A stretch of 23,430 bases of DNA, from the IMG/VR virus record IMGVR_UViG_2675903330_000005, positions 1 through 23,430 of that record, one strand, 5' to 3'. Positions 1 to 16,901 of this stretch are shown here, piece by piece (position 1 is the stretch's first letter; every line of letters begins with the position of its first letter). The translations under genes were made by a program, and so were the position numbers. The notes under the pieces are model-generated. The model did not search any database. It was not told the origin of the DNA and saw only the letters and a program-made list of their open reading frames with translations. The stretch comes from a virus. Lineage: Duplodnaviria > Heunggongvirae > Uroviricota > Caudoviricetes.

Positions 1-1017
1 TCACACTTCTAGCGTTGCGAGGGGGTTGAATCTCAGAGCCGTCTCAAGATGATCGGGTGCTAAATGGGCATAGCGCATAGTCATTTTTATATCGTGATGT
101 CCGAGGATTTTTTGCAAAGCAAGGATATTTCCACCCGACATCATGAAGTGCGCCGCAAACGTATGGCGCAGAACGTGTGTCAGTTGACCGCGAGGGAGCA
201 CGATAGACGTTTTTTCCATCACGGATAAAAATTGAAAATAGCAGTCTGTAAAGAAATTGAACCCATCAAGCGCCATGATCTCTTCGTAAAGCTCTTTACT
301 GATAGGGATGCTTCTGTTTTTCTTCCCCTTCGTTCTTACAAAGGTAATTCGGTATTTGGTCACTTGCGAGCGGGTAAGATTTATTGCTTCTCGCCAGCGT
401 GCGCCTGTGCTTAGGCATATCTTGACTACCAGTGCCAGAATTGGGTCCTGACGTTTGCAATCAGCCAGCAGTTCAACAATCTGCTCATGGGTAAGCCATG
501 CCATCTCTTTTTCTGCGATGGTGAATTTTCGCATGTTCTCCAGTGGGTTCGGATACGACCATTCGCCCAGGCGGGATAGTTCGCTAAAAACACTACTTAG
601 ATAGCTTTGCTCCAGGTTAATGGTGACCGGGCTTGCTCCTTTCTTCCATTTCTCGCTGAAGTAGATCTCACCTGTCAGGCGTTTATCTCGATAGTGGGCA
701 AACATTTTAGAGGTTAGATCAGTTGCAAGGGGATTGCCCAGAGCGTCAACCATCAACAGCAGTTTGTCATAGACATGCTGCCCAGCTGTCAGAGATTTAC
801 CATGTAGTTTGAACCATAGCTCAATCACGTCTTTCAATGTCCGACGATCCACTGATTCGCCCAGCCAGGGCTTTGCTTCGGTTTCTTCCATCGTGTGACG
901 CTCAAAAGCCAGAGCTTCGCCTTTGGTGGCGAATTGTTTACGCACACGACGTCCACTACGTCCGGCGGGGTAACATTCGCAAAGCCATTTTCCTGTGGTG
1001 AGTTTTCGTACTGCCAT
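1..1017 (-). CDS. int: Phage integrase, tyrosine recombinase (P2 Int-like); likely start at the internal ATG (Met27 of the track ORF), about 338 aa
   Basis: Translated ORF has the P2-integrase-like C-terminal catalytic region (..LSTGARWREA.., ..HVLRHTFAAHFMMSGGNILALQKILGH.., ..MTMRYAHL..); N-terminus MAVRKLTTGKW matches the P2 Int start pattern; stop codon at window position 1-3. Confidence 0.9.
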   Translation of the reverse strand: MAVRKLTTGKWLCECYPAGRSGRRVRKQFATKGEALAFERHTMEETEAKPWLGESVDRRTLKDVIELWFKLHGKSLTAGQHVYDKLLLMVDALGNPLATDLTSKMFAHYRDKRLTGEIYFSEKWKKGASPVTINLEQSYLSSVFSELSRLGEWSYPNPLENMRKFTIAEKEMAWLTHEQIVELLADCKRQDPILALVVKICLSTGARWREAINLTRSQVTKYRITFVRTKGKKNRSIPISKELYEEIMALDGFNFFTDCYFQFLSVMEKTSIVLPRGQLTHVLRHTFAAHFMMSGGNILALQKILGHHDIKMTMRYAHLAPDHLETALRFNPLATLEV

Positions 1018-1203
1018 AAAAAATGCCCTCCAGTAGAGAGCATTTTTACTGTATGTATAACCAGTGTCAATGTATGAAATCCTGCGACCATACATCTCAC
1101 TGAAGCCATAATGAAGTTAGCTATTTTTTGCTATGTGAGTATGTGACTTTTGCGGTTAGCCTGCGGCTCATTGTTATATTAGGCGCAGATATAAAAGCAA
1201 AAT

Positions 1204-1410: not shown

Positions 1411-1986
1411 TTACCTAACGTACTTAATTGTTAAACTTATAATTTTCCCAATTATTTCAACATCTTCTATCTTGCACTCGAAGGCTCTGTTTCCACCCTC
1501 GACGAAGATTCTTCCACCGGGTAAACGAGTAATGTCACGGATCGTTATTTCGCCATCAATACTTATTACCCATTTACCATCACGTATATCATCAAATTCC
1601 TTATCACAAATAAATTCAGAATTATTATCTGTGATTACAAAAAGATTCTTGAATGCCGACGGTAGAAATTCTCTATCGAAAATATAAAAACCGTCTTCAC
1701 ACAAGGCCCCATCAGATAATACATATTTAGCAACTTCCATAGTATTTGTATTACCTGAAGTTTGCTTTGAACCATGCCCGGTTGTGAGCCAATTAAGCGA
1801 GGTGCCTGTTTCAAGGGCGCACTGGATTACCCATTCTGCTGGGAATGAGTCACGCATGTAGCGTGTGGCGAGTGTACTTTTAGAGATTCCTAAATGATCG
1901 CACAACGCCTGTCGAGTCTTGAATCCATAAGCTTCTACCATGCGCTCTATAGCGCCTCGTCCGCCTTTCTCCAAATTCATGGTCAC
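1411..1986 (-). CDS. cI: Immunity repressor, phage 186 CI-type
   Basis: N-terminal region ..IERMVEAYGF..HLGISKSTLATRYMR..CALETGTSLNWLTTGHG matches the 186 CI HTH-domain pattern as I recall it; about 190 aa; located between int and divergently transcribed apl/cII. Confidence 0.85.
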   Translation of the reverse strand: MTMNLEKGGRGAIERMVEAYGFKTRQALCDHLGISKSTLATRYMRDSFPAEWVIQCALETGTSLNWLTTGHGSKQTSGNTNTMEVAKYVLSDGALCEDGFYIFDREFLPSAFKNLFVITDNNSEFICDKEFDDIRDGKWVISIDGEITIRDITRLPGGRIFVEGGNRAFECKIEDVEIIGKIISLTIKYVR

Positions 1987-2105: not shown

Positions 2106-2327
2106 ATGAGACCTAACATTTCAATCACTCTTACCACCCCTCATGTGACTATTGAACGCTATAGCGAGCTGACAGGGCTATCCATCGATACCATCAATGA
2201 CATGTTGGCTGATGGACGCCTTATCCGTCACCGACTGCGCAAAGATAAAAAACGCGAAAAAGTGATGATCAACATAGCAGCAATGACCGTTGATGCGCTT
2301 TCAGAATGCAATCTAAACCTTAATTAG
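2106..2327 (+). CDS. apl: Apl/Cox-type excisionase and transcriptional regulator (small HTH protein)
   Basis: 73-aa protein, first gene of the rightward operon opposite cI; HTH-like segment [23 protein letters not shown]; positional equivalent of 186 apl / P2 cox. Confidence 0.6.
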
Positions 2328-3449: not shown

Positions 3450-3683
3450 ATGCGTAATATTGAAACCCTCACGACCAAAACCGGACCGGATGATGCAGGT
3501 CTTAATCTTTTACTGACAGAGGCTCGTCTGGAAGAACGCCGGGCAAGGGCTGAAGCAATGGCTGCTCGCCTCGATAGCCTGGCGTGTCATATCACCTCCC
3601 GCCAGCTAAACCACGTCGAAGCGGCAGAACTGCTGCGTGTGACTGCTGAAGCAATCCAGAACGAAGCGCAGGAGATCCACTGA
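3450..3683 (+). CDS. Hypothetical early-region protein, 77 aa, predicted coiled-coil/helical
   Basis: ATG at 3450 with AGGAGA SD 7 nt upstream; its stop overlaps the next gene's start (TGATG). Confidence 0.45.
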   Translation: MRNIETLTTKTGPDDAGLNLLLTEARLEERRARAEAMAARLDSLACHITSRQLNHVEAAELLRVTAEAIQNEAQEIH

Positions 3684-3910
3684 TGGCTGATGCAATGGAT
3701 CTCGTACAGCAGCGCGTTGAAGAAGAACGCCAACGCCATATCCGTGCTGCCCGTGCCAAAACGCCGGGCGTGTCCCGCGTGCTTTGCGTTGAGTGTGAAG
3801 CGCCAATTCCGCCAGCACGCCGCCGTGCCATTCCTGGAGTGCAGCTTTGCATTACCTGCCAGGAAATCGCAGAGCTGAAAGGCAAACATTACAACGGAGG
3901 TGCTGTATGA
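3683..3910 (+). CDS. TraR/DksA-family C4 zinc-finger protein (P2 orf82-like)
   Basis: CxxC...CxxC arrangement (..LCVECEAPIP..LCITCQE..) in a 75-aa protein; typical position in the P2-like early operon. Confidence 0.7.
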   Translation: MADAMDLVQQRVEEERQRHIRAARAKTPGVSRVLCVECEAPIPPARRRAIPGVQLCITCQEIAELKGKHYNGGAV

Positions 3911-4764
3911 GCACCATCCTGAAATGGGCGGGTAATAAAACCGCCATTATGTCCGAACTGAAAAAATACCTTCCTGCTGGCCCGCGACTGGTTGAACCTT
4001 TCGCGGGTTCTTGTGCTGTGATGATGGCGACGGATTACCCCAGCTATCTGGTTGCGGATATTAATCCTGATTTAATCAACCTCTATAAAAAGATTGCCGC
4101 TGATTGCGAAGCGTTTATATCTCGTGCCAAAGTTTTATTTGAGGAAGCAAACAGTGAGCTGGCTTATTACAACATAAGACAGGAGTTTAATTACTCAACT
4201 GAAATTACTGATTTCATGAAGGCGATATATTTCCTGTATCTCAATCGTCACGGTTACCGTGGTTTATGTCGCTATAACAAGAGCGGGTATTTCAACATTC
4301 CCTACGGTAATTATAAAAATCCGTATTTCCCTGAAAAAGAAATTCGCGCATTTGCAGAGAAAGCCCAGCGGGCAACGTTTATCTGCGCGAGCTTTGATGA
4401 AACGCTGGCGATGCTGCAGGTGGGGGATGTGGTGTATTGCGATCCGCCGTATGACGGTACGTTTTCCGGCTATCACACTGATGGTTTCACTGAAGATGAC
4501 CAGTATCACCTGGCATCCATTCTTGAACATCGGTCATCAGAAGGACATCCGGTCATTGTTTCTAACAATGACACATCCCTGATTCGTTCGCTGTATCGCA
4601 ATTTTACTCACCACTATATCAAGGCAAAACGCAGCATCGGCGTGTCAGCTGGCGAGGGTAAATCTGCAACAGAAATCATTGCTGTTTCCGGGCCGAGCTG
4701 CTGGTTGGGATTTGATCCTTCGCGTGGCGTGGATAGTTCTGCCGTGTACGGAGTGTGTGTATGA
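3907..4764 (+). CDS. dam: DNA adenine methyltransferase (Dam-like, GATC N6-adenine MTase)
   Basis: N-terminal LKWAGNK and FAGSCAV (AdoMet-binding) motifs plus catalytic DPPY motif (..[11 protein letters not shown]..); start ATGA-overlaps the upstream stop. Confidence 0.9.
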
Positions 4765-7175
4765 GTCATGACGATATGAACAATTGCAGCGGCTTTAACG
4801 AGGCCGCCGCAGCATTTTCATGGAACGGCTCGAAAAAGGCCATTAACCCTTATCTGGACCCGGCGGAAGTTGCGCCGGAGTCTGCACTTTCAAACCTGAT
4901 CACTCTGTACGCTGCCGATAACGAGCAGGAACAACTGCGCCGCGAGGCACTGAGTGAGCAGGTCTGGGAGCGTTATTTCTTTAATGAATCCCGTGATCCT
5001 GTCCAGCGCGAAATGGAGCAGGATAAGCTCATTAGCCGGGCAAAGCTGGCGCATGAGCAGCAGCGTTTTAATCCGGACATGGTCATTCTGGCGGACGTAA
5101 ACGCCCAGCCTTCCCATATCAGCAAGCCGCTGATGCAACGTATTGAATACTTCAGCAGCCTGGGCAGGCCAAAGGCTTATTCCCGCTATTTGCGTGAGAC
5201 GATTAAGCCATGTCTGGAGCGACTGGATTGTGTACGTGACAGTCAGCTATCTGTTTCTTTCCGTTTTATGGCAAGCCATCAAGGGCTGGAGGGTCTGCTG
5301 ATCCTGCCTGAAATGAGCCAGGATCAGGTGAAACGCCTGTCCACCCTGGTAGCAGCGCATATGAGCATGTGTCTTGAGGACGCTTGTGGTGATTTGTATG
5401 CCACCGATGACGTTAAGCCAGAAGAAATCCGCAAGACATGGGAAAAGGTGGCAGCGGAAACCCTGCGTCTGGATGTTATCCCGCCTGCGTTTGAGAAACT
5501 TCGTCGGAAAAGAAACCGCCGCAAACCAGTGCCCTATGAACTCATCCCGGGTTCGCTGGCGCGTATGTTGTGTGCCGACTGGTGGTATCGGAAATTATGG
5601 AAGATGCGTTGCGAATGGCGGGAAGAGCAGTTGCGTGCTGTCTGCCTGGTCAGCAAAAAAGCATCCCCCTATGTCAGCTATGAAGCCGTGATGCATAAAC
5701 GTGAGCAGCGCCGTAAGTCGCTGGAGTTTTTTCGTTCTCATGAACTGGTGAACGAAGACGGCGACACGCTGGATATGGAAGATGTGGTAAACGCCAGCAG
5801 CAGCAACCCGGCGCATCGCCGCAATGAGATGATGGCCTGTGTTAAAGGTCTGGAGCTTATCGCGGAAATGCGCAGTGACTGTGCCGTTTTCTACACTATC
5901 ACCTGTCCGTCGCGTTTCCATTCCACGCTCAATAACGGCAGACCAAACCCGACCTGGACAAACGCGACGGTAAGACAAAGTAGCGATTATCTGGTCGGCA
6001 TGTTTGCTGCATTTCGTAAGGCTATGCATAAAGCCGAGTTGCGCTGGTATGGCGTGCGGGTAGCTGAGCCGCATCATGACGGTACTGTGCACTGGCATCT
6101 CATGTGTTTCATGCGTAAAAAAGACCGCCGCGCCATCACTGCATTACTGCGTAAGTTTGCCATCCGTGAAGACCGCGAGGAGCTGGGCAATAACACGGGA
6201 CCACGCTTTAAGTCTGAGCTGATAAACCCGCGCAAAGGTACGCCAACAAGCTATATCGCGAAATACATCAGTAAGAACATTGACGGGCGTGGTCTGGCTG
6301 GGGAGATCAGCAAGGAAACGGGTAAATCCCTGCGTGATAACGCTGAATACGTTAATGCCTGGGCGTCTCTGCATCGTGTTCAGCAATTCCGCTTCTTTGG
6401 CATTCCGGGGCGTCAGGCTTACCGTGAACTGCGATTGCTGGCTGGTCAGGCGGCAAGGCAACAGGGTGACAAAAAAGCAGGTGCGCCGGTACTGGATAAC
6501 CCGCGCCTTGATGCAATCCTGGCTGCTGCTGATGCTGGTTGTTTTGCCACCTACATCATGAAGCAGGGCGGCGTACTGGTTCCCCGCAAATATCACCTCA
6601 TCAGAACTGCTTATGAAATCAACGAAGAACCGACCGCATATGGCGATCACGGTATTCGTATTTATGGCATCTGGTCACCCATTGCAGAGGGCAAGATCTG
6701 CACTCATGCGGTGAAGTGGAAAATGGTTCGTAAGGCCGTTGACGTTCAGGAGGCGGCAGCCGACCAGGGCGCTTGCGCCCCTTGGACTCGTGGCAATAAC
6801 TGTCCCCTTGCTGAAAATTTGAACCAACAGGAGAAAGATAAATCAACAGATGGGGATCCCAGAACTGACATTACCTGTATGGATGACAAGGAGTTGCACG
6901 ATTACCTGCACAGTATGAGCAAAAAAGAGCGCCAGGAACTGGCAGCAAGATTACGCCTGATGAAACCGAAACGGCGTAAAGACTACAAACAGCGAATTAC
7001 AGAGTATCAGCGTCAGCAGCTCGTCTATGAACTGAAGTCAAGAGGATTTGATGGCAGCGAGAAAGAGGTCGATTTGCTCCTTCGCGGTGGCAGTATTCCG
7101 TCAGGAGCAGGCCTGCGTATCTTCTATCGGAACCAGCGTTTGCAGGAAGATGATAAGTGGCGGAACCTGTATTAA
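4761..7175 (+). CDS. A: Replication initiation endonuclease gpA (HUH rolling-circle initiator)
   Basis: About 804 aa; HUH motif ..[10 protein letters not shown].. and tyrosine pair ..[10 protein letters not shown].. characteristic of P2 gpA; start overlaps dam stop (ATGA). Confidence 0.9.
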
Positions 7176-7266
7176 TCACGTGGGTTAACAATTCGTGCTC
7201 TTAATAATACCAGGCATATCAGGCTGATGAACGTAAAAAACGTTTTACATCAGTAAGATTATTATA

Positions 7267-7286
7267 TACTGTAAATATAAACAGTG
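7267..7286. promoter_or_regulatory. Candidate LexA (SOS) box: TACTGTAAATATAAACAGTG (CTGT-N8-ACAG)
   Basis: Match to the LexA consensus TACTGT(AT)4ACAGTA core, overlapping a -10-like TATAAA/TATACT region about 45 bp upstream of a small ORF with a consensus SD. Confidence 0.55.
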
Positions 7287-7327
7287 GTTGTGCATACAGT
7301 GTTGCTTGTGGTGTCATAGGAGGAAAG

Positions 7328-7498
7328 ATGCAGGACTATTTTTTGGAGTCTTTGAAGCTCCAGCGCATTGATTTTTTTCTTAAGCTTGTGGCGGCTAGTG
7401 AGTGTAGTGATGAAGAGAAGGGGCTGGCTCTGCAGTGGGTTTCTGAGTTGACTGATGAGCTGATGGCGAGAATTCGCGCTCATGAATACAACCACTAG
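7328..7498 (+). CDS. Small 56-aa ORF downstream of the LexA box; candidate SOS-inducible Tum-like antirepressor or small regulator
   Basis: ATG preceded by a perfect AGGAGG SD at optimal spacing; not in the supplied ORF track (under 60 aa); translates to MQDYFLESLKLQRIDFFLKLVAASECSDEEKGLALQWVSELTDELMARIRAHEYNH. Confidence 0.35.
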   Translation: MQDYFLESLKLQRIDFFLKLVAASECSDEEKGLALQWVSELTDELMARIRAHEYNH

Positions 7499-7671
7499 AT
7501 GGATCTTCCCAGTAGTTTTTCGAAACTGAAAACAACCGAGTGAAAGTTACGACACTTGAGATTTTCACTTGGGTTATAATCAGAATACTTGTTTTCGTCC
7601 ACAAATGTACATGCCATGCATTAATGTGGTGATAGCTTTCAATTTTTACTAAATGGTTTCAATTGCTTCTT

Positions 7672-8217
7672 ATGAATCATGTAATGTTAGATATAGAAAC
7701 ATTGGATGTTGAAAAAACAGCTTATATCCTTTCAGTTGGTGCGGCTTTTTTCGTGCCGGAGACTGGCGAGATTGGTCCGGGTTTCTATCAAGTTATTTCG
7801 CTTGATCATGAACAAGCAGGCAGAACCATTGCCCCCTCTACTGTAAAGTGGTGGATGAATCAAAGTACTGAAGCTAAAAACGAAAATTTTGATGGCACTA
7901 AGGACCTTTTAGAGGTTCTGAATGAATTTGTGGCATTTATTCTTCATAATCGTACTGGCCGAGTAAAAGTGTGGGGAAACGGGAAAGAGTTTGACTGCAC
8001 GATCATGCATCATGCCCTGTTACAGGCGGGTCTGGATTGCCCATGGTCATTCAGAGATACTCTTGACGTTAGAACCATCTTAGCACTTGGTGAAAGCAAA
8101 GGAATTTTTTCTCATGCTGATAAAAATTTCACTGGCATTAGGCACACAGCATTCGATGATGTTTTATTTCAGATCGCACAGGTTTCTCACATCTATATGA
8201 ATTTAAATAAAAAATAA
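7672..8217 (+). CDS. DEDDh-type 3'-5' exonuclease (DnaQ-like fold), about 181 aa
   Basis: Exo I motif VMLDIETLD, Exo II-like ..VWGNGKEFDCTIM.., Exo III motif ..HTAFDDVLFQI..; first gene of the AT-rich cargo cassette; start codon uncertain (7663 TTG / 7672 ATG / 7684 ATG). Confidence 0.7.
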   Translation: MNHVMLDIETLDVEKTAYILSVGAAFFVPETGEIGPGFYQVISLDHEQAGRTIAPSTVKWWMNQSTEAKNENFDGTKDLLEVLNEFVAFILHNRTGRVKVWGNGKEFDCTIMHHALLQAGLDCPWSFRDTLDVRTILALGESKGIFSHADKNFTGIRHTAFDDVLFQIAQVSHIYMNLNKK

Positions 8218-8232
8218 ATATAGGACTTAGCT

Positions 8233-9144
8233 ATGGATTGCTTAGATGTAACCTATTGGACTGAGCTAGATGTTTTCGCACAGTATCCTGTTGGTGCTCG
8301 CTCTAAGGCATTGGTTATTTCCCCTGATGTTGCCCCCCATGGTATCAAAGCATCGTGGCCGTATCTTTTTAAGAGAAGCATTAAAAAATACCCAGATCAA
8401 TTTTGGTGTGAGATCGTTGCCTACAGGATTGGATTGCAGCTTGGTTTTAATGTCCCCAAAGCAGTTCCTTCGTTAAAGACTAATGATTTGGGGCATACGT
8501 TTTGCGGGGCCCTCATTGAGTGGTTTCATCATAAAGATTATGAGAAATTTGCTCCCGCTGGTGATTACTTTGTTCGAAGAGATCCAAATTTTGATCGTGA
8601 GAAAGGAGCTAAGCATTCCATTGAAGGGCTGAGGATTATCGCGAAAGCTCTTAAAGTTGACTATGTTGAGTGGTTGGAGAATATGGCTCTCTTTGACGCA
8701 GTAATAGGTAATACAGATAGACATCAAGAAAACTGGGGGTTTATCTTCTCACCTTTAACCAGCGAGTGTCAGCTTGCACCATTTTTCGATAATGGTACGA
8801 GCTTATGCTACGAACGTTTTCCGGAACATGTTGCTGATTGGACCGATCATAGACTCAGGGAGCATGTTAGCCGGGGAAAGCATCATTTGCGTAAGACTCT
8901 GGGCAAAGATGAGTATCAGAGATTAGGTCATTTAGAGTTAATCAAAGAACTTTGTGATAAAAAAGAAGAATTAAAACAGCGGGTAGCTGAAAGACTGGCT
9001 CGTTTGAACCATGACTTTTGGGACTCAACTTTTGCGGAGTTGACGGAAATAAACTGCCCTGTTCCGCTGACTAGAGAACGTGCTGCATGGATTGTTCGTG
9101 TAACAAACATGCGTATTGAACTGATTAAAGGTGTTACTTCATGA
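8233..9144 (+). CDS. HipA-family serine/threonine kinase, short HipT-like form lacking the HipA N-terminal subdomain
   Basis: P-loop-like ..VGARSKALVIS.. (cf. HipA VAGAQEKTAL), ..WCEIVAYRIGLQLGFNVP.. (cf. HipA YCLLLAKELGLNVP), catalytic loop ..VIGNTDRHQENWGF.. (cf. HipA IGATDGHAKNFS) and Mg-binding ..LAPFFDNGTS.. (cf. HipA LTPFYDIIS); 303 aa. Confidence 0.8.
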   Translation: MDCLDVTYWTELDVFAQYPVGARSKALVISPDVAPHGIKASWPYLFKRSIKKYPDQFWCEIVAYRIGLQLGFNVPKAVPSLKTNDLGHTFCGALIEWFHHKDYEKFAPAGDYFVRRDPNFDREKGAKHSIEGLRIIAKALKVDYVEWLENMALFDAVIGNTDRHQENWGFIFSPLTSECQLAPFFDNGTSLCYERFPEHVADWTDHRLREHVSRGKHHLRKTLGKDEYQRLGHLELIKELCDKKEELKQRVAERLARLNHDFWDSTFAELTEINCPVPLTRERAAWIVRVTNMRIELIKGVTS

Positions 9145-9845
9145 CTATCTTAATAGAAAAAATTCCCATGCCAAGTAGGCTCTTACTGACATGGCAACCG
9201 ACCGACGGCGGCTCTCGCTATGTCGTTGGTGAACTTCTTCAAGATGAGTCTGAAGGCTACGAGTTTAATTATCTTACGGATAGCAAAGATTTTGCTAAAG
9301 CTGTGGATAAAGGCTTTCACGGTTTTCCTGCTTTTGACATAAAAGTTACGACTCATCGCAAAGACGTTATGCAAACCTTTTCAAGAAGGTTACCCTCTAG
9401 GAAAAGAGAAGATTTTGCCGATTACTTGCTGACGTTTCGTCTTCCTGCTGATTTTAGAGAGAATGACTTCGTTTTGCTCGCTTGTACTGGCGGAAAAGTG
9501 GCTAGTGATGGTTTTTATTTTGTCCCAGACTTGTCTTCTATTCGGCCACCTTTTGATTATGTCATGGAGGTCGCCGGAACGAGACACATGATTAAGGAAG
9601 GGCGTCTAGCTCTTGACGAGATATCAATTGGTGATGAAGTCATATTGCGCAATGAAGATACCAATACTGTTGATCCGCTGGCCATATTAGTAACGAAAAA
9701 CGACAATCATCTAGGATATGTCAACAAGGCATTGTGCGCCGCATTACGAGATCTTGGTAAAAACCATGATATCAGTGGAGTGGTCGTACGTAAAAATGGC
9801 TCTTCGGATAGGCCTTTGATTTATGCAAAAGTATCTGTTAGATGA
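9141..9845 (+). CDS. Two-domain protein: N-terminal HipA-N-subdomain-like (HipS-like) region fused to a C-terminal HIRAN-like domain
   Basis: N-term ..LLLTWQPTDGGSRYVVGELLQDESEGYEFNY.. resembles the HipA N-terminus (..LVTWMNNQRVGELTKLANGAHTFKY..); C-term ..DEVILRNEDTNTVDPLAILVTKNDNHLGYVNKALCAAL.. fits the HIRAN pattern; start ATGA-overlaps the kinase stop. Confidence 0.55.
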   Translation: MTILIEKIPMPSRLLLTWQPTDGGSRYVVGELLQDESEGYEFNYLTDSKDFAKAVDKGFHGFPAFDIKVTTHRKDVMQTFSRRLPSRKREDFADYLLTFRLPADFRENDFVLLACTGGKVASDGFYFVPDLSSIRPPFDYVMEVAGTRHMIKEGRLALDEISIGDEVILRNEDTNTVDPLAILVTKNDNHLGYVNKALCAALRDLGKNHDISGVVVRKNGSSDRPLIYAKVSVR

Positions 9846-10013
9846 TGCATGTTTATTCATGCTTGCTAGTGATACTGCATTTATAGAGTCTGTCAACTAT
9901 GGAGATTTTTTCGTCTCATGCAACTACATTAAATTACCATTAAGTGGGTTGACGTTGCGGGGGAAGCATTACACGTCAGTATTGGTGCGTCTGAAGTGTC
10001 ATGCCGAAAAGGT

Positions 10014-10121
10014 ATGAAAAAGCCGCTTGGTAACATAACTATTCGCAATGATGTTGTAGGAAGCGAACTGGAAATGATAGCAATGGATGCTGTTGATGTA
10101 GTGTATGTCTATGCTGCATGA
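10014..10121 (+). CDS. Possible 35-aa micro-ORF (MKKPLGNITIRNDVVGSELEMIAMDAVDVVYVYAA) at the 3' end of the cassette
   Basis: ATG with an AAAGG SD-like sequence upstream; ends about 35 bp before the intrinsic terminator; weak support. Confidence 0.2.
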   Translation: MKKPLGNITIRNDVVGSELEMIAMDAVDVVYVYAA

Positions 10122-10155
10122 GTTTGCATGAACGTTTGAGGCTCGTTTTTGTTAA

Positions 10156-10181
10156 GGCCCGCCAGAACTGGCGGGCTTTTG
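10156..10181 (+). terminator. Rho-independent terminator closing the cargo cassette
   Basis: GC-rich inverted repeat GCCCGCC-agaact-GGCGGGC followed by TTTTG. Confidence 0.6.
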
Positions 10182-10225
10182 CTCATGTCATGCAGGTGCA
10201 TGAAAACCACTACATAAAGCGGGCA

Positions 10226-10244
10226 GGCGTGGCGGGGATACGAG
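10226..10244. other. Candidate cos site (19-nt cohesive end): GGCGTGGCGGGGATACGAG followed by CGCGCGC
   Basis: Matches the P2 cohesive end GGCGAGGCGGGGAAAGCAC at 14 of 19 positions and the 186 sequence as I recall it at about 15 of 19; lies between the post-gpA cargo region and gene Q, where cos sits in P2. Confidence 0.6.
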
Positions 10245-10305
10245 CGCGCGCAAACATGTTTACTTGCAATTAATGTAGATATATTCTGAAATTGATAACT
10301 TACAC

Positions 10306-10515
10306 ATGAAAGGAGACGTGAGAGTGGCAAAATATACACCGGGCCAGAAAGTAAAACATGCAACAGGACATGGTCCAATCATGGTAATTGATCACTACCA
10401 ATCGGCTACAATGGCAGTTTGTACGTGGTTTATTGGTGCTAAGAACCAGCGCGGAGTTTTTCATGAAGATACTCTAGTTTTATTTGTTCCAAAAGCTGAG
10501 AGTGATGATGAATGA
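10306..10515 (+). CDS. YodC/DUF2158-like small protein; start may be GTG at 10324 (63 aa)
   Basis: ..KYTPGQKVKHATGHGPIMVI....GVFHEDTLV.. resembles E. coli YodC (..GGPRMIV....EAFHETELV..); AGGAG SD 8 nt upstream of GTG 10324. Confidence 0.55.
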   Translation: MKGDVRVAKYTPGQKVKHATGHGPIMVIDHYQSATMAVCTWFIGAKNQRGVFHEDTLVLFVPKAESDDE

Positions 10516-10774
10516 TTCTCTGATAAAAATAGTTGACTGGATGGTTAATACCACTCGTTCTAATGGTGTGTTGTATCAGTCCGAGGTTGTTGAATTTCTA
10601 ATCAATGACTTTGGGGACGAGTTCATCAAAACTAATGAGAATGGTAATTACGCTATAAGCAGTACTGTGCTAGCAAATTTTAGAAAGGCTAGCAAAGACG
10701 ATATAGTTTGGGATCGTGAACAGTTAGCTTGGCGTTTACGCAATGAAAGCGATTTACCCGGACGGATGCAGTAG
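10508..10774 (+). CDS. Hypothetical 89-aa protein, overlapping the upstream small gene's stop
   Basis: ORF whose ATG (10505/10508) overlaps the stop of the YodC-like gene; no recognisable motif. Confidence 0.4.
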   Translation: MNDSLIKIVDWMVNTTRSNGVLYQSEVVEFLINDFGDEFIKTNENGNYAISSTVLANFRKASKDDIVWDREQLAWRLRNESDLPGRMQ

Positions 10775-10790
10775 AGATAATACAGAGAAT

Positions 10791-10831
10791 AGTGAACAAG
10801 CTGATAATTTCAACTTGTTCACTTCTTTTTT
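10791..10831. terminator. Hairpin terminator between the convergent small-gene pair and gene Q (possibly bidirectional)
   Basis: Perfect 10-bp inverted repeat AGTGAACAAG...CTTGTTCACT with 13-nt loop, followed by TCTTTTTT on the + strand. Confidence 0.5.
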
Positions 10832-11873
10832 ATGACTGATTATTTTCTAAGCCATAATATTCAAATTTGACTACCTCTTCATCTAACCATTCATTAATTT
10901 CGGCAATGCGTTTTTGTAAAGGCATCAGTTCATTCCGAACAAATACCCGGCTGGCTTTCTCCACATCCCCAAACCCCCCTACATTATTAGGCATAATCCC
11001 CATCATCTGCGGCGGCACTCGGTGTGCTGCCATCATGTCGTCCCGGCTCACGTTCTTGATATTCAGAAACTCATCCTTCGCCGCGACTTCTGACAACGGG
11101 ATGATCTGAAGCCCGTCCTTTTTGCCGTTAGGCGAGTACATAAACAGATTGCGGAAGTTACCTGGTCCTTTGGCGCTTTTCATCGCATTGCGGAGGTTGT
11201 TCACATCCTCCTGGTTTTGCGCGGCATCGGTCATGTACATGATGAAGCCTGCATGACTGCCGTTAATGTAATACTTTCGACGGAACAGCGTGGCGGACTC
11301 GTTGAGCAGGGCAGACGGAATGGCAGAAAGATAACCGGGCAGGCCGTAGATCTCCTGATTAATATCCGGTTCCATTAGATGAAAAATGCTGCCTTTCGTG
11401 AACTGATACGGCTGGGTTGTCATACCGTATTGCACAAACCAGTAGGTATCCAGGTCTAACCCGCGTCGGGTGTATTTTGCCAGCGCAGGCTCAAGGGCGA
11501 TAACTTCACCGAATCGGTTCGTGCGTTTCTCCAGGTAGGCGTTACCAAATACCAGATAGTCCTGCACAAAACGCGAAAAAGCCTGCTGGCTGAGCAGCGG
11601 GTGAGGGATATAGGTGCTGGTCAGAATGTTGCACTTTACTGCAATCGGTGAGCTGTGGTGAACGGCGGCGCGGAATGTTCGCGCCAGTCCGTCAAAACTT
11701 ACGGGTGGCTCATACCAGCGATCCGTCTGTACGCATTCCACATAGTCCAGCAGTTCGCGGCGGTCAAGTACTGGAATGGGATCACCGAAGCTGAATGCTT
11801 CGGCTGAAGTTTGGCTTTTATGCTTGAGCTGATTCGTCGCCGCAGCGCGGTTTTTCTTACTCTTTCCCATCAA
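10830..11873 (-). CDS. Q: Capsid portal protein gpQ
   Basis: 347 aa, leftward, ATGA-coupled to P; position and size match P2 Q. Confidence 0.9.
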   Translation of the reverse strand: MMGKSKKNRAAATNQLKHKSQTSAEAFSFGDPIPVLDRRELLDYVECVQTDRWYEPPVSFDGLARTFRAAVHHSSPIAVKCNILTSTYIPHPLLSQQAFSRFVQDYLVFGNAYLEKRTNRFGEVIALEPALAKYTRRGLDLDTYWFVQYGMTTQPYQFTKGSIFHLMEPDINQEIYGLPGYLSAIPSALLNESATLFRRKYYINGSHAGFIMYMTDAAQNQEDVNNLRNAMKSAKGPGNFRNLFMYSPNGKKDGLQIIPLSEVAAKDEFLNIKNVSRDDMMAAHRVPPQMMGIMPNNVGGFGDVEKASRVFVRNELMPLQKRIAEINEWLDEEVVKFEYYGLENNQS

Positions 11874-13636
11874 AAAATCTCCACAATATTGCTGGTATTG
11901 GCGGACTCGCCCTGCAGCGGTTCGTTAAACAGTGCGTGCATCGTTGCCCAGGCCAGATCGGCGTGGCTGGCTTCTTCGCTGCGGCTGGCTTCATAGGTCG
12001 GGCGGTTGCCACTGGCGGTGGTGGCGCGACGGATTGCCATAAATGACTGCGCTATGTCGGTGTGTCCGGCGTCAAACTCCAGACGACGGTGACTGATAAT
12101 GTCGTAGGCTTTGAGTACCAGGGCGTTTTTAACGTTGGGGTTGTAGACAAACTCCCGGACGGCAGGAAAGAACGCTTTCACGTTCTCGTAAACCCCGTGA
12201 CCGACACCTGTCGAGTCGATGCCGATATAGGTCACGTTGTACTGTTCGGTCAGTTTTTTGATGGCGTCAGCCTGGGCGCGGAAGTCCATCCCGCGCCACT
12301 GGTGACGCTCAAGAATGCGAAACTTACCGCCTGGCACGGCTGGCGGTGCCACCACCACGCATCCGGCGCTGTCGCCGTTCTGCGTACCTTTTGCCGGGTC
12401 ATAACCGATCCACACCTCGCGCCAGCCAAACGGGCGCAGGGCCAGTGCATGAAAGTCGGTCCAGACTTCCCAACTGTCCACCATGCACGCCTGCAGTTCG
12501 CTGAGCGGGAACACGGACGCGAGATCGTCCACGAACTCGCACATCAGCAGGTTCTGGTATTCGTCCGGGCTGTACTCCATGCGTAGCTGGTCGAGGTCGA
12601 ACAGGTTACAGCCGCCGCGCACCGCATCTTCCACGGTGACTATCTGGCGGTATTGCCCGTCTGCGCACAGCAGGCCGGGGGCCAGATTGCTGTGGGACAG
12701 GTCGATGTCCACCTTGTCGGCTTTGTTGCGTCCACGGTTGAACAGCGCACCGGACCAGAACGGATAAGCACTGTGTGTCAGGCTGGATGGCGTGGAAAAA
12801 TAGGTTTGTCGCCATTTTTTGTGAATAGCCATACCGGAAGCCACTTTGCGCAGCTCCTGAAATTTCGGTATCCAGAAATATTCATCCAGATACAGGTTGC
12901 CGTGATAACTCTGGGCAGTGCGGGCATTGGTGCCGAGGAAGTAAAGCGTGGCACCGTTAGGAAGCACCATCGGATCACCTTTCAGCTCCACCTCCACTTC
13001 TTTGGCGAAGTCGATGATGTACTGCTTAAAGACGTGGGCCTGTGCCTTGCTGGCGGAAAGGAAAATCTGGTTACGTCCGGTCAGCAGGGCGTCAATCAGG
13101 GCTTCACGGGCAAAATAGAAGGTTGCGCCGATCTGGCGTGACTTCAGCAGGTTGCGGATGCGGTTGGTTTTTCCGGCTTCCCACCAGTGGCGCTGGTAGT
13201 TGAACATGGAGGAATGGAAGATTTCTTCCAGCTTCTCAATCTGTTCATCGGTGAAAACATTCTTTTCCGGCTGACGGCGTGGGCCTTTGTTGCGGTTGGC
13301 GACGTTAGGGTTTAAGTCGGCTTCGTTGCCGCCATTGTTAAACTTGCCGATCCGCGCGTGGCGCTCCGACTGGCGCGCCAGCAGGTCAATCTCTTTGAAA
13401 TCTTTCCCTTCTTTGTGCTCCTTCATAATGAGCTGGCAGTAGCGTGCGGCGGTGGTGAGCTGCATCTGATCCAGCGGCCCATAGTCACCCCACTTGTCGC
13501 GTTTTTTCCAGCTGTGAACGGTTGCAACTTTCTCGCCCAGCATTTCAGCAATGCGGGCGACGCGGTATCCCTGAAAGTACAGCAGCATGGCCTGCCGACG
13601 GGGATCGAGATCTGCGGGTGTCAGTGTGGTGTTCAT
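11870..13636 (-). CDS. P: Terminase large (ATPase) subunit gpP
   Basis: 588 aa (P2 P is about 590 aa); divergent from the O-N-M-L operon as in P2. Confidence 0.9.
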   Translation of the reverse strand: MNTTLTPADLDPRRQAMLLYFQGYRVARIAEMLGEKVATVHSWKKRDKWGDYGPLDQMQLTTAARYCQLIMKEHKEGKDFKEIDLLARQSERHARIGKFNNGGNEADLNPNVANRNKGPRRQPEKNVFTDEQIEKLEEIFHSSMFNYQRHWWEAGKTNRIRNLLKSRQIGATFYFAREALIDALLTGRNQIFLSASKAQAHVFKQYIIDFAKEVEVELKGDPMVLPNGATLYFLGTNARTAQSYHGNLYLDEYFWIPKFQELRKVASGMAIHKKWRQTYFSTPSSLTHSAYPFWSGALFNRGRNKADKVDIDLSHSNLAPGLLCADGQYRQIVTVEDAVRGGCNLFDLDQLRMEYSPDEYQNLLMCEFVDDLASVFPLSELQACMVDSWEVWTDFHALALRPFGWREVWIGYDPAKGTQNGDSAGCVVVAPPAVPGGKFRILERHQWRGMDFRAQADAIKKLTEQYNVTYIGIDSTGVGHGVYENVKAFFPAVREFVYNPNVKNALVLKAYDIISHRRLEFDAGHTDIAQSFMAIRRATTASGNRPTYEASRSEEASHADLAWATMHALFNEPLQGESANTSNIVEIF

Positions 13637-13778: not shown

Positions 13779-14612
13779 ATGACAGTGAAAGCAAAGCGTT
13801 TTCGCATCGGGGTGGAAGGTGCCACCACCGACGGACGCGAAATCCAGCGTGAATGGCTGGAACAGATGGCAGCCAGCTACAACCCGGCGGTGTATACCGC
13901 GCTGATTAACCTTGAGCACATCAAGTCTTATCTGCCGGACAGCACCTTTAACCGCTACGGCAAGGTGACGGCGCTGTTTGCTGAAGAAATCACGGAAGGT
14001 CCGTTGGCAGGCAAGATGGCGCTGTATGCCGACGTTGAGCCAACGGAATCCCTGGTGGAACTGGTGAAAAAAGGCCAGAAATTATTCACCTCTATGGAAG
14101 TCAGCCCGAAGTTTGCTGATACGGGCAAAGCCTACCTGGTCGGCCTGGCTGCCACTGATGACCCTGCCAGTCTGGGCACTGAAATGCTGACATTCAGCGC
14201 CAGTGCAGCCCATAACCCGCTGGCAAACCGCAAGCAGAATCCCGCCAATCTCTTTACCGCCGCAGAGGAAACGGTGATCGAACTGGAAGAAATCCAGGAG
14301 GACAAGCCGTCCCTGTTTGCCCGCGTCACGGCGCTGTTCACCAAAAAAGAGCAGTCCGACGATGCCCGGTTCTCTGATGTGCATAAGGCCGTGGAGCTGG
14401 TCGCCACTGAGCAGCAAAACCTGAGCGCACGCACCGAAAAATCCCTGTCTGAGCAGGAAGAACGTCTGTCTGAGCTGGAGACTGCCCTGCAGGCACAGCA
14501 GACCGCCTTTAACGAACTGGTGAATAAGCTGAGTCATGAAGACAGCCGCCAGGACTACCGCCAGCGTGCAACAGGCGGTAACGCCCCCGCTGACACTCTG
14601 ACCAATTGCTGA
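13779..14612 (+). CDS. O: Capsid scaffolding protein gpO
   Basis: 277 aa; ..FRIGVEGATTDGREI..INLEHI..YLVGLAATDDPASLGTE.. matches the P2 O pattern. Confidence 0.85.
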   Translation: MTVKAKRFRIGVEGATTDGREIQREWLEQMAASYNPAVYTALINLEHIKSYLPDSTFNRYGKVTALFAEEITEGPLAGKMALYADVEPTESLVELVKKGQKLFTSMEVSPKFADTGKAYLVGLAATDDPASLGTEMLTFSASAAHNPLANRKQNPANLFTAAEETVIELEEIQEDKPSLFARVTALFTKKEQSDDARFSDVHKAVELVATEQQNLSARTEKSLSEQEERLSELETALQAQQTAFNELVNKLSHEDSRQDYRQRATGGNAPADTLTNC

Positions 14613-14628
14613 TGGAGCACAAAACCCG

Positions 14629-15687
14629 ATGAAGAAGAATACCCGCTTTGCTTTTAACGCTTACCTGCAGCAGCTGGCGCGTCTGAACGGTGTGGCCGTT
14701 GAAGAACTGTCCAGCAAGTTCACTGTAGAGCCGTCTGTGCAGCAGACGCTGGAAGATCAGATCCAGCAGTCCGCCGCATTCCTGACGCTGATTAACGTCA
14801 CGCCAGTGACTGAGCAGTCTGGTCAGTTGCTGGGGCTGGGTGTTGGCAGCACCATTGCCGGAACCACTGATACCACAGCTAAAGAGCGTGAGCCTGTCGA
14901 TCCGACGCTGATGGTCGATGTGGAATATAAATGCGAGCAGACTAACTTTGACACGGTGCTGACCTACGCGAAGCTGGACCTGTGGGCGAAGTTTCAGGAT
15001 TTCCAGGTGCGTATCCGTGACGCCATCGTAAAACGTCAGGCACTGGACCGCATCATGATCGGCTTTAACGGCGTGAAGCGTGCGAAAACCTCCAACCGTA
15101 GCGAAAGCCCGCTGCTGCAGGATGTGAACAAAGGCTGGCTGCAGAAAATCCGTGAAGATGCACCGGATCACGTCATGGGCAGCACCACCACGGGCGGTGA
15201 AACCACACCGGGTGCGGTGAAAGTCGGTAAAGGTGGCGAATATGCCAACCTGGACGCCGTGGTGATGGATGCCGTCAATGAGCTTATCGACGTGGTCTAC
15301 CAGGACGATGACGATCTGGTGGTGATTTGCGGTCGTGAACTGCTGTCTGACAAGTATTTCCCACTGGTCAACAAAGAGCAGGAAAACAGTGAAAAACTGG
15401 CTGCCGATATGATCATCAGCCAGAAACGCATGGGTGGCCTGCAGGCCGTGCGTGCGCCGTTCTTCCCGCCGAATGCGCTGCTGATCACCCGTCTGGATAA
15501 CCTGTCCATCTACTGGCAGGAAGACACCCGCCGCCGTTCAGTTATCGACAACCCGAAACGTGACCGGATTGAAAACTTTGAATCCGTTAACGAAGCCTAT
15601 GTGGTTGAGGATTACCGCTGCGCCGCACTGGTGGAAAACATCCAGATTGGCGATTTCAGCGCCGCTGCAGCAGAAGCCGGAGCGTAA
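14629..15687 (+). CDS. N: Major capsid protein gpN
   Basis: 352 aa; N-terminus ..TRFAFNAYLQQLARLNGV.. matches the P2 N start pattern; follows O. Confidence 0.9.
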   Translation: MKKNTRFAFNAYLQQLARLNGVAVEELSSKFTVEPSVQQTLEDQIQQSAAFLTLINVTPVTEQSGQLLGLGVGSTIAGTTDTTAKEREPVDPTLMVDVEYKCEQTNFDTVLTYAKLDLWAKFQDFQVRIRDAIVKRQALDRIMIGFNGVKRAKTSNRSESPLLQDVNKGWLQKIREDAPDHVMGSTTTGGETTPGAVKVGKGGEYANLDAVVMDAVNELIDVVYQDDDDLVVICGRELLSDKYFPLVNKEQENSEKLAADMIISQKRMGGLQAVRAPFFPPNALLITRLDNLSIYWQEDTRRRSVIDNPKRDRIENFESVNEAYVVEDYRCAALVENIQIGDFSAAAAEAGA

Positions 15688-15690
15688 CCC

Positions 15691-16341
15691 ATGAGCCTGA
15701 GTCCCGCACGGCAGCATCGCCTGCGCGTTCAGGCTGAACAGGCCGCCCGCGAGGGCGGCAGCGTTCGCCACGCGTCGGGCTATGACCTGATGCTGCTGCA
15801 ACTGGCGGAAGACCGCCGCCGTCTCAAGGGCGTTCAGTCCACGGTCAAAAAAGCGGAAATTAAGGTGGAACTGCTGCCGAAGTACGCCGCCTGGGCAGAG
15901 GGTGTCCTGACTGCCGGAGGCGCACAGCAGGATGACGTGCTGATGTACGTGATGCTGTGGCGCATTGATGCCGGAGATTATGCCGGGGCGCTGGAGATCG
16001 GGCGTCACGCCCTGCGTCATGGCTGGGTGATGCCGTTGGGTAACCGCAACGTGCAGACCGTGCTGGCAGAGGAAATGGCAGATGCAGCCCAGAGCGCAAT
16101 GCTTGCCGCCACCGGCTTTGATGCCGATCTGTTGCTGCAGACGCTGGAGCTGACAGACGGTATGGATATGCCGGACCAGTCACGGGCGCGTCTGCATAAA
16201 GCGATTGGCGCTGTTCTGAGTGAAAACAATCCGGCGTTCGCCCTTAATCATCTCAACCATGCGCTACAGCTCGATCCCCGCTGTGGCGTGAAAAAAGACA
16301 AACAGCAGCTGGAGCGCAGACTGCGCAATGACAGCCGCTGA
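15691..16341 (+). CDS. M: Terminase small (endonuclease) subunit gpM
   Basis: 216 aa, immediately after N as in P2. Confidence 0.8.
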   Translation: MSLSPARQHRLRVQAEQAAREGGSVRHASGYDLMLLQLAEDRRRLKGVQSTVKKAEIKVELLPKYAAWAEGVLTAGGAQQDDVLMYVMLWRIDAGDYAGALEIGRHALRHGWVMPLGNRNVQTVLAEEMADAAQSAMLAATGFDADLLLQTLELTDGMDMPDQSRARLHKAIGAVLSENNPAFALNHLNHALQLDPRCGVKKDKQQLERRLRNDSR

Positions 16342-16436
16342 CAGAACGTGCCCCCGCGCACGGGCGGCACGGGGTGGCGAAAGGCACTGCCACATCAAAA
16401 CCCCGTCCACCGCCCTCTATTTCAGGAGAAAGCAGC

Positions 16437-16901
16437 ATGAAGTTTGTTGCGCCAGAACAGGCACCGGAACAGGCGGAAATCATCAGGAATACGCCGTTCT
16501 GGCCTGATGTGGACCTGTCGGAGTTTCGCAGTGTCATGCGCACTGACGGCACGGTGACGCAGCCGCGTTTAAAGCAGGTTGCGCTGTCGGCAATTTCGGA
16601 GGTCAACGCAGAGCTGTATGAGTTTCGCAGACGTCAGCAGATGCTGGGGTATGCGTCGCTGGCTGAGATTCCGGCGGAACATCTGGACGGGAAAAGTGAG
16701 CGCATTCAGCACTATTTCAACGCGGTTTACTGCTGGGCACGCGCCATGCTCAACGAACGATACCAGGACTATGACGCCACGGCATCCGGTGTGAAGCGAG
16801 GCGAGGAACTGGCGGAATCCAGCGGTGATTTGTGGCGTGACGCCCGCTGGGCCATCAGCCGGGTGCAGGATGCGCCGCACTGCACAGTGGAGCTTATCTG
16901 A
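16437..16901 (+). CDS. L: Head completion/stabilisation protein gpL (start at internal ATG with CAGGAG SD)
   Basis: Position after M; stop overlaps X start; the track ORF's N-terminal extension lacks an SD. Confidence 0.75.
   Translation: MKFVAPEQAPEQAEIIRNTPFWPDVDLSEFRSVMRTDGTVTQPRLKQVALSAISEVNAELYEFRRRQQMLGYASLAEIPAEHLDGKSERIQHYFNAVYCWARAMLNERYQDYDATASGVKRGEELAESSGDLWRDARWAISRVQDAPHCTVELI

Follow-up and report, generated by a model that had tools for sequence, protein, structure and literature searches.

A probable Fels-2-type cohesive-end site between two cargo pockets of a P2-family prophage

Is the 19-nt sequence at positions 10226–10244 the cohesive-end site (cos) of the prophage in which it lies, and does it part the accessory DNA between genes A and Q into two pockets? 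Both were proposed in an original prediction made from the letters of the window, by which we mean the whole stretch of viral DNA that was analysed (23,430 nucleotides). Judging from sequence comparison, the 19-mer is very probably the cos of a Fels-2-type P2-family prophage, and we put the probability of this reading at roughly 0.88.

The cohesive-end sequence and its position

The window holds a P2-family prophage from the Fels-2 lineage. The 23 kb visible here are a part of the prophage only, and their genes run in the order int, C, cox, dam, A, cargo, cos, cargo, Q, P, O, N, M, L. The landmarks are as follows.

1–1095, minus strand: integrase
1411–1986, minus strand: repressor
2106–2327, plus strand: Cox-like excisionase
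3847–4764, plus strand: DNA methyltransferase
4755–7175, plus strand: replication gene A, left border of the right-end pocket (Phage_GPA, E = 1.5e-127)
10226–10244, plus strand: cohesive-end 19-mer GGCGTGGCGGGGATACGAG, equivalent of cosN, read from the sequence and matching ends of the P2/186/Fels-2 type
10830–11873, minus strand: portal, Q homologue (Pfam, PHROGs)
11870–13636, minus strand: terminase large subunit, P homologue, 588 aa (Pfam, PHROGs)
13779–14612, plus strand: scaffold
14629–15687, plus strand: major capsid protein
15691–16341, plus strand: terminase small subunit, M homologue, 216 aa, the presumed cos-recognition subunit (phrog_74, E = 7e-88)
16374–16901, plus strand: head completion protein

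The portal, both terminase subunits, the scaffold and the capsid protein are encoded by full-length ORFs. Identity to Fels-2 is 93% for M, 97% for P and 90% for Q (93–97% for the terminase), whereas identity to 186 and P2 is 49% for M and 60–63% for P and Q (only 49–63% for the terminase subunits). The closest complete genome is that of E. coli DS26-1, which is 98% identical over 7000–13000. For a wider comparison, 80 loci encoding relatives of the portal were collected, one per species and taken from its representative genome, and the 54 of these in which gene A as well as the cos core could be placed were used.

Reference ends were taken from the GenBank records of P2 (cosL, 1–19, and cosR) and 186 (cos, 1–19), and the right and left ends of each phage were joined and then aligned with the window. 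The 19-mer agrees with the annotated cohesive end of 186 at 15 of 19 positions, the first 12 nucleotides being the same, and with that of P2 at 14 of 19. The flanks also align with the P2 and 186 junctions, sharing TGCAT(G/T)AAAACC..(A/G)AAG(C/T)GGGC(A/G) upstream and (C/T)GCGCGC downstream; in the window, CGCGCGC occupies 10245–10251, directly 3´ of the 19-mer. This alignment to the P2 and 186 cos regions, which had been named as the check to be made, reveals a conserved core that spans about -30 to +7 relative to the 19-mer. The resemblance to the 19-nt ends of P2 and 186 that had been predicted is thus upheld, and the homology extends to a module of 152 bp. The predicted location, between the post-gpA region and Q, is likewise borne out: the site lies between gpA (4755–7175) and the portal gene (10830–11873), and the same arrangement is found in the 54 relatives.

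With P2, 186 and the satellite P4, which have 19-nt 5´ cohesive ends, the window has in common the first 13 nucleotides of the overhang, GGCG(A/T)GGCGGGGA, the 3´ flank (T/C)GCGCGC, an upstream core of the form TGCAT..AAAACC..AAAG(C/T)GGGC(A/G), the position beside Q and a two-subunit terminase. The difference lies in the last six nucleotides of the overhang (ATACGAG in the window versus AAAGCAC or AAAGCAT in P2, 186 and P4). The 19-mer is G+C-rich and starts with the family pattern GGCG(A/T)GGCGGGG. In its full form, GGCGWGGCGGGGAWAS, the pattern has its sole exact match in the window at 10226–10244; with up to two mismatches there are two matches where 0.10 are expected, and none of 100 shuffles reached two.

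Together with the following CGCGCGC, the 19-mer recurs unchanged in Fels-2, SopEphi, SEN8, Yersinia phage MLG42 and Cartapus. It is identical in 30 of the 54 related prophages, and most of the others differ at position 13 only. This position (10238 in the window) may be A, C, G or T across loci L013–L077, the rest being nearly invariant, so that the variants can be written GGCGTGGCGGGG-N-TACGAG. Both the record of SEN8 and the paper describing it designate ggcgtggcggggatacgag as the cos site, and in the record of Cartapus the first 59 bp are labelled “putative cos site, homologous to the cos of P2 phage”; the two annotations were made by similarity. Virion-end mapping for a cos of the ATACGAG type was not found in the literature searched. 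Cartapus, whose cos has this same core, releases its genomes in encapsidated form (PMC9928086).

A conserved 152-bp module with a hairpin

In the alignment of the 54 related prophages, the only conserved DNA between gene A and Q is a 152-bp module that carries the 19-mer at its 3´ end. Its parts are the following.

10100 (approximate start)–10251, plus strand: Fels-2-type cos module, 152 bp, defined by per-column conservation over 54 loci, which drops sharply at both edges
10102–10130, plus strand: distal TGCAT(G) repeats GTGTATG (consensus GTGCATG), CTGCATG and TTGCATG, conserved in P2, 186 and the 54 loci
10154–10181, plus strand: GC-rich inverted repeat AAGGCCCGCCAG/CTGGCGGGCTTT followed by a T-run, terminator-like (repeat search, folding energy)
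10197–10251, plus strand: core, about 55 bp long and common to the window, P2 and 186, made up of TGCATGAAAACC...AAAGCGGGCA, the 19-mer and CGCGCGC (P2/186 junction alignment)

The same limits emerge from BLAST: matches in phage records and in complete E. coli genomes (1277 of 5426) start at about 10097–10105 and end at about 10251–10266. The module is asymmetric: it reaches about 126 bp from the cut on the right-end side, compared with only 7 bp on the left-end side. In Fels-2, SopEphi, SEN8, Cartapus and MLG42 it is about 88–93% identical to that of the window, and cos has the same position between A-side and Q-side cargo. From these phages the window differs in four distal substitutions that include both GATC sites, in an extra, decayed cos and in the cargo on both sides.

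Conservation is strongest next to the 19-mer. In the core, the window has the consensus base at all 54 columns that are at least 90% conserved, and a cos-core profile scores 77 bits at the site (E = 1.7e-21). The size of this core agrees with the 55-bp P2-family core of Ziermann and Calendar (1990), as quoted in PMC5694545. Over the entire module, 96 of 152 positions are at least 90% conserved across the 54 loci, and the window follows the consensus at every one of the 68 such positions that fall in the hairpin and proximal parts.

TGCAT(G) repeats start at 10102, 10115, 10125, 10190 (inverted, ATGCA) and 10197 (TGCAT), and exact copies of TGCAT or ATGCA number four in 106 bp of the module against 0.25 expected (Poisson P = 1.3e-4). 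These are candidate recognition repeats for terminase. In lambda, cos (cosQ-cosN-cosB) is cut by staggered nicks to give 5´ overhangs, and the adjacent flank has repeated terminase-binding motifs. The functional logic is the same, but the two sites have no sequence relationship, the overhang is 12 nt in lambda versus 19 nt here, and the flank in the window, where the roles of the motifs are putative, is conserved almost wholly on the right-end side of the cut, unlike the layout of lambda cos.

The distal part of the module is the main reason for caution. The window departs from the consensus at four well-conserved distal positions, 10104, 10122, 10132 and 10142, and the changes at 10132 and 10142 abolish both of the conserved GATC sites, which are kept in 50–51 of 53 relatives. 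Recognition could be weakened by these substitutions, the loss of GATC included. We do not read the four deviations as inactivation, because 12 of the 54 loci deviate more than the window, and for the same reason the idea that the window is an outlier in module decay was rejected. The window's variant of the module is rare: of the 1282 E. coli complete-genome records that match, 6 do so at ≥95% identity. In the relatives, the two GATC sites stand about 11 bp apart in the distal module (GATCGTT..GGATCGTT), where the window has GAAC (10130–10133) and GCTC (10141–10144); they have been lost although the prophage encodes its own DNA methyltransferase (3847–4764).

The hairpin has arms of 12 nt at 10154–10179 that are 92% complementary, with TTTT next. 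It folds at -22.6 kcal/mol (z = -2.9) with 11 pairs followed by UUUUGCUC, and was not listed by a simple terminator scan. In the 54-locus comparison the inner CCAG..CTGG is nearly invariant and the outer stem has some compensatory changes. Fels-2-type modules carry this terminator-like hairpin, whereas P2 is without it, and 186-like variants keep the inner inverted repeat without the T-run. A protein-binding role at the DNA level is equally possible, because the 186-like variants retain the inner repeat and lose the T-run; the element may be a terminator that shields cos from read-through, a protein-binding palindrome, or both. The kinase cassette upstream had been predicted to be terminated at 10156–10181. 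That part of the original prediction fails: the hairpin is real, but it is a component of the conserved cos module and lies beyond the end of the cassette at 9845. As the cassette's own terminator it was rejected on the ground that it is conserved with cos in phages with unrelated cargo. A search of 9700–10900 for structured RNAs (Rfam) returned one sub-threshold match, STnc100, at 18 bits versus a gathering score of 47, which we take as noise.

In the prophage of DS26-1 (locus L002), an IS66-family element, ISEc47, at 6288–8825 of that locus is inserted at the equivalent of window position 10276–10286, 32–42 bp past the 19-mer. It leaves the conserved core intact and parts it from the left-pocket genes. 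The 19-mer itself has an A-to-T change at position 18 (ATACGTG). Because DS26-1 has both the substitution and the insertion, some members of the window's lineage appear to be decaying.

Cargo on both sides of cos

The accessory DNA on the two sides of the site comprises the following features.

7663–8217, plus strand: Rv2179c-like 3´-5´ exonuclease, right-end pocket (Pfam)
8233–9144, plus strand: HipA-like kinase, right-end pocket (Pfam; PADLOC PDC-M03A, E = 4e-36)
9141–9845, plus strand: HIRAN-domain protein, right-end pocket (Pfam; PADLOC PDC-M03B, E = 1e-36)
10324–10515, plus strand: 63-aa gene, left-end pocket (phrog_3261; weak DUF2158 match)
10505–10774, plus strand: DUF6953 gene, 89 aa, left-end pocket (family match)
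10791–10823, no strand assigned: stem-loop of 14 pairs, terminator-like, between the convergent DUF6953 and portal genes

The right-pocket gene calls agree with the RefSeq annotation of the 98% identical DS26-1 prophage, which was also followed for the starts of the left-pocket genes. PDC-M03A/B is listed by PADLOC as a candidate defence pair and is not a validated system; the left-pocket genes had no defence match in the PADLOC comparison. A consensus scan found no promoter for the left-pocket genes between 10245 and 10324. The stem-loop at 10791–10823 is in the position of tQ of P2 and tW of 186, as annotated in their records. The cassette of exonuclease, kinase and HIRAN protein stands in place of the DinI/Tum gene that is usual after gene A, and was found in just 5 of 5426 complete E. 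coli genomes.

The prediction that cos divides two accessory pockets is supported by the 54 related prophages, where one canonical core is accompanied by variable distances on both sides. From the end of gene A to cos, the interval measures 238–4381 bp (median 1144), and from cos to the Q stop 163–3502 bp (median 1683). The two lengths vary independently, and 24 of the 54 loci are long on both sides (A-to-cos interval >1000 bp, cos-to-Q interval >400 bp). Breakpoints give the same picture: relatives from IMG/VR (L093–L098) that share 99.5% identity with the window from 7000 to the end of the cos module diverge exactly at 10251–10253, and similarity resumes only inside Q. Therefore cos is a mosaic boundary, and the left pocket, which begins at 10252, where similarity to these relatives stops, starts 7–9 bp after the cut. 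The cargo differs among Fels-2, SopEphi, SEN8, 500465-1 and Cartapus, and annotated phages carry unrelated genes on both sides of cos, as listed below.

Fels-2: DinI and a hypothetical protein on the A side; a 565-aa protein on the Q side
SEN8: a hypothetical protein and an HNH endonuclease on the Q side
500465-1: a TIR-domain protein on the Q side
Cartapus: a DUF4145 protein on the Q side
P2: old/tin on the A side; none on the Q side
186: tum/orf97 on the right-end side of cos

Cargo at this place is known. Rousset et al. (2022; PMC9122126) define the cos-proximal interval between gpA and gpQ as a place where P2-like phages concentrate defence genes, and the same gpA-gpQ hotspot was defined in a recent survey (NAR 2026; PMC13586616). 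According to PMC5694545, Dodd and Egan (1996) and Nakayama et al. (1999; ctx of phiCTX) put forward the region from cosL to Q as a hotspot for insertions, and the same works as cited there have the TO-region among the earlier insertion sites. Examples of left-side cargo are ctx of phiCTX and ORF1-4 of phiRSY1 (PMC5694545). The window resembles the A-Q hotspot in its variable accessory genes, which here include the PADLOC candidate pair. Rousset et al. (2022) and the NAR 2026 survey treat A-Q as one hotspot, whereas here the cos module divides it into two intervals, whose sizes were measured in 54 loci. This resolution is a refinement of known facts and not a new principle. The cos type, its position and the cargo on both sides have already been described, and current understanding is unchanged; because the A-Q and cosL-Q hotspots are in the literature, the two-pocket picture is already established, and only its quantification is new here.

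A decayed second module and competing readings

The window has one canonical cos site and, in addition, a decayed copy of the 186 type, mutated at invariant positions and presumably inactive, that was absent from the original prediction.

9842–9976, plus strand: degenerate cos module of the 186/P2 type, collinear with the real module at an offset of +269 to +275 bp

This copy lies 275 bp upstream of the real cos, between the end of the cassette (9845) and the real module. The densest TGCAT cluster of the window, at about 9823–9929, is found here and not in the real module. Local alignment to the 186 cos junction gives a score of 87 compared with 25 ± 4 for shuffled sequences (maximum 40; z = 15), and a repeat search recovered families D1–D3 as collinear between 9842–9962 and 10111–10237 with a spacing of 269–275 bp. 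With the cos-core profile, nhmmer scores the copy at 18 bits (E = 0.005) versus 77 bits for the real site. Its pseudo-19-mer, GACGTTGCGGGGGAAGCAT at 9951–9969, agrees with 186 at 16 of 19 positions; it is mutated at G2 and G6, which are invariant in the family, and the next bases are TACACGT, not TGCGCGC. The copy is thus of the 186/P2 type, whereas the resident terminase is of the Fels-2 type. A 64-aa ORF at 9823–10017 was considered as a gene and rejected as probably spurious, with no family match and an overlap with the decayed module.

In two metagenomic viral contigs with the same cassette (L099 and L100; HIRAN protein 95% identical), 9875–10087 is missing and the cassette is joined almost directly to the real module. 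Among complete E. coli genomes this 213-bp segment occurs in only five, all with the cassette. No intact donor of it was found in phage records or E. coli genomes, and in phage records there are weak matches only, to cosL-proximal DNA of PSP3, SEN1 and EtG. Similar decayed 186-type copies are found upstream of the real cos in a Franconibacter locus (L063, 2321–2365), at a distance of 480 bp, and in an Enterobacter locus (L090, 2446–2504), 5.6 kb from the real cos. The simplest reading is that the decayed copy is a fossil of recombination between P2-like phages with different cos types. It is also conceivable, though we think it quite improbable, that the copies in the window, L063 and L090 point to a recurrent replacement of cos and terminase specificity, or to a signal retained as a decoy or for hitch-hiking with terminases of the 186/P2 type. 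If either of these were true, cos modules would count as mobile units moving together with neighbouring defence cargo, and as more than fixed landmarks.

The most serious competitor of the main reading accepts that the 19-mer is a cos by descent and holds that it is no longer used, the prophage being defective or cryptic and the site a relic. The loss of both GATC sites among four substitutions at conserved distal positions speaks for this reading, as do the rarity of the module variant (6 of 1282 E. coli records at ≥95% identity), the IS66 insertion and mutated 19-mer of the sister prophage DS26-1, and the fact that just 23 kb of the prophage are visible. It sits poorly with a core and hairpin that have the consensus at every conserved column, with visible packaging and head genes that are full-length ORFs 90–97% identical to Fels-2, and with the 12 of 54 relatives whose modules deviate more. 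On balance a relic is possible but unlikely.

The 152-bp block might be mainly regulatory, a terminator or protein-binding site closing the early/right operon, with an incidental likeness to cos and the packaging site elsewhere. A strong hairpin with a T-run is present, and the strictly conserved CCAG..CTGG inverted repeat resembles a protein-binding site; however, the virion ends of P2 and 186 map exactly to the homologous 19 nt according to their records, P2 keeps the core yet has no hairpin, and the only other cos-core-like sequence in the window is the decayed copy at 9842–9976, which makes this very unlikely. Slimmer still are the chances that the upstream copy, with its pseudo-19-mer at 9951–9969, is a functional or alternative cos, for example for the 186/P2-type terminase of a co-resident phage. 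Its 16 of 19 matches to 186 and its collinearity with the whole cos module would suit that role, but it is mutated at the invariant G2 and G6 and in the GCGCGC flank, scores 18 bits against 77, is missing in relatives with the same cassette, and faces a resident terminase of the Fels-2 type. That the 19-mer is a chance GC-rich sequence had nothing more in its favour than the short length of the motif originally flagged; with 0.1 matches expected per window even when two mismatches are allowed, and with 130 bp of flanking sequence homologous across genera, the pattern statistics and the 152-bp homology leave it a negligible probability, and a chance match was rejected.

Taking 10226–10244 as the cos of this prophage, packaging may be pictured as follows. 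After induction and replication, the terminase (M, 15691–16341, and P, 11870–13636) would recognise 10100–10251, probably through contacts with the TGCAT repeats and with the core of about 55 bp. If the site is cut like those of P2 and 186, the record of the latter giving the geometry as “top strand cut at 5' end and bottom strand cut at 3' end”, the top strand would be nicked 5´ of 10226 and the bottom strand after 10244, and this stagger would yield a linear packaged genome with complementary 19-nt 5´ overhangs. The left virion end would start at 10226 and run through the small left pocket into Q; the right end, carrying gene A, the kinase cassette and almost all of the recognition module, would stop at 10225. 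Once injected, the DNA would close into a circle again by annealing of its ends. The hairpin with its T-run may stop rightward transcription from the upstream cargo before it reaches cos. As the only conserved DNA between A and Q, the module would form a fixed island between two independently replaceable pockets, and homologous exchange anchored in A, cos and Q could swap either pocket alone.

Placed in this way, cos would fix the ends of the virion chromosome and with them the true left and right arms of the prophage. Treating the accessory DNA as two separately exchangeable intervals helps to delimit candidate defence cargo such as the PDC-M03-like kinase/HIRAN pair, and the site may be of use in the design of cos-plasmid or transduction tools for Fels-2-type phages.

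Two further records deserve mention for the state of their cos. Escherichia phage 500465-1 (locus L011) has a 1-nt deletion inside the 19-mer at about 3620–3640 (GGCGT-GCGGGG); its gene A contains IS21-family insertions, and its portal and terminase genes are split. The record gives the impression of a defective prophage that was deposited as a phage. In Escherichia sp. E1V33, two short contigs (L014 and L025) both begin 40 bp before the 19-mer, which probably reflects an assembly break at a cos module common to two P2-like prophages of a single genome and not a real DNA end.
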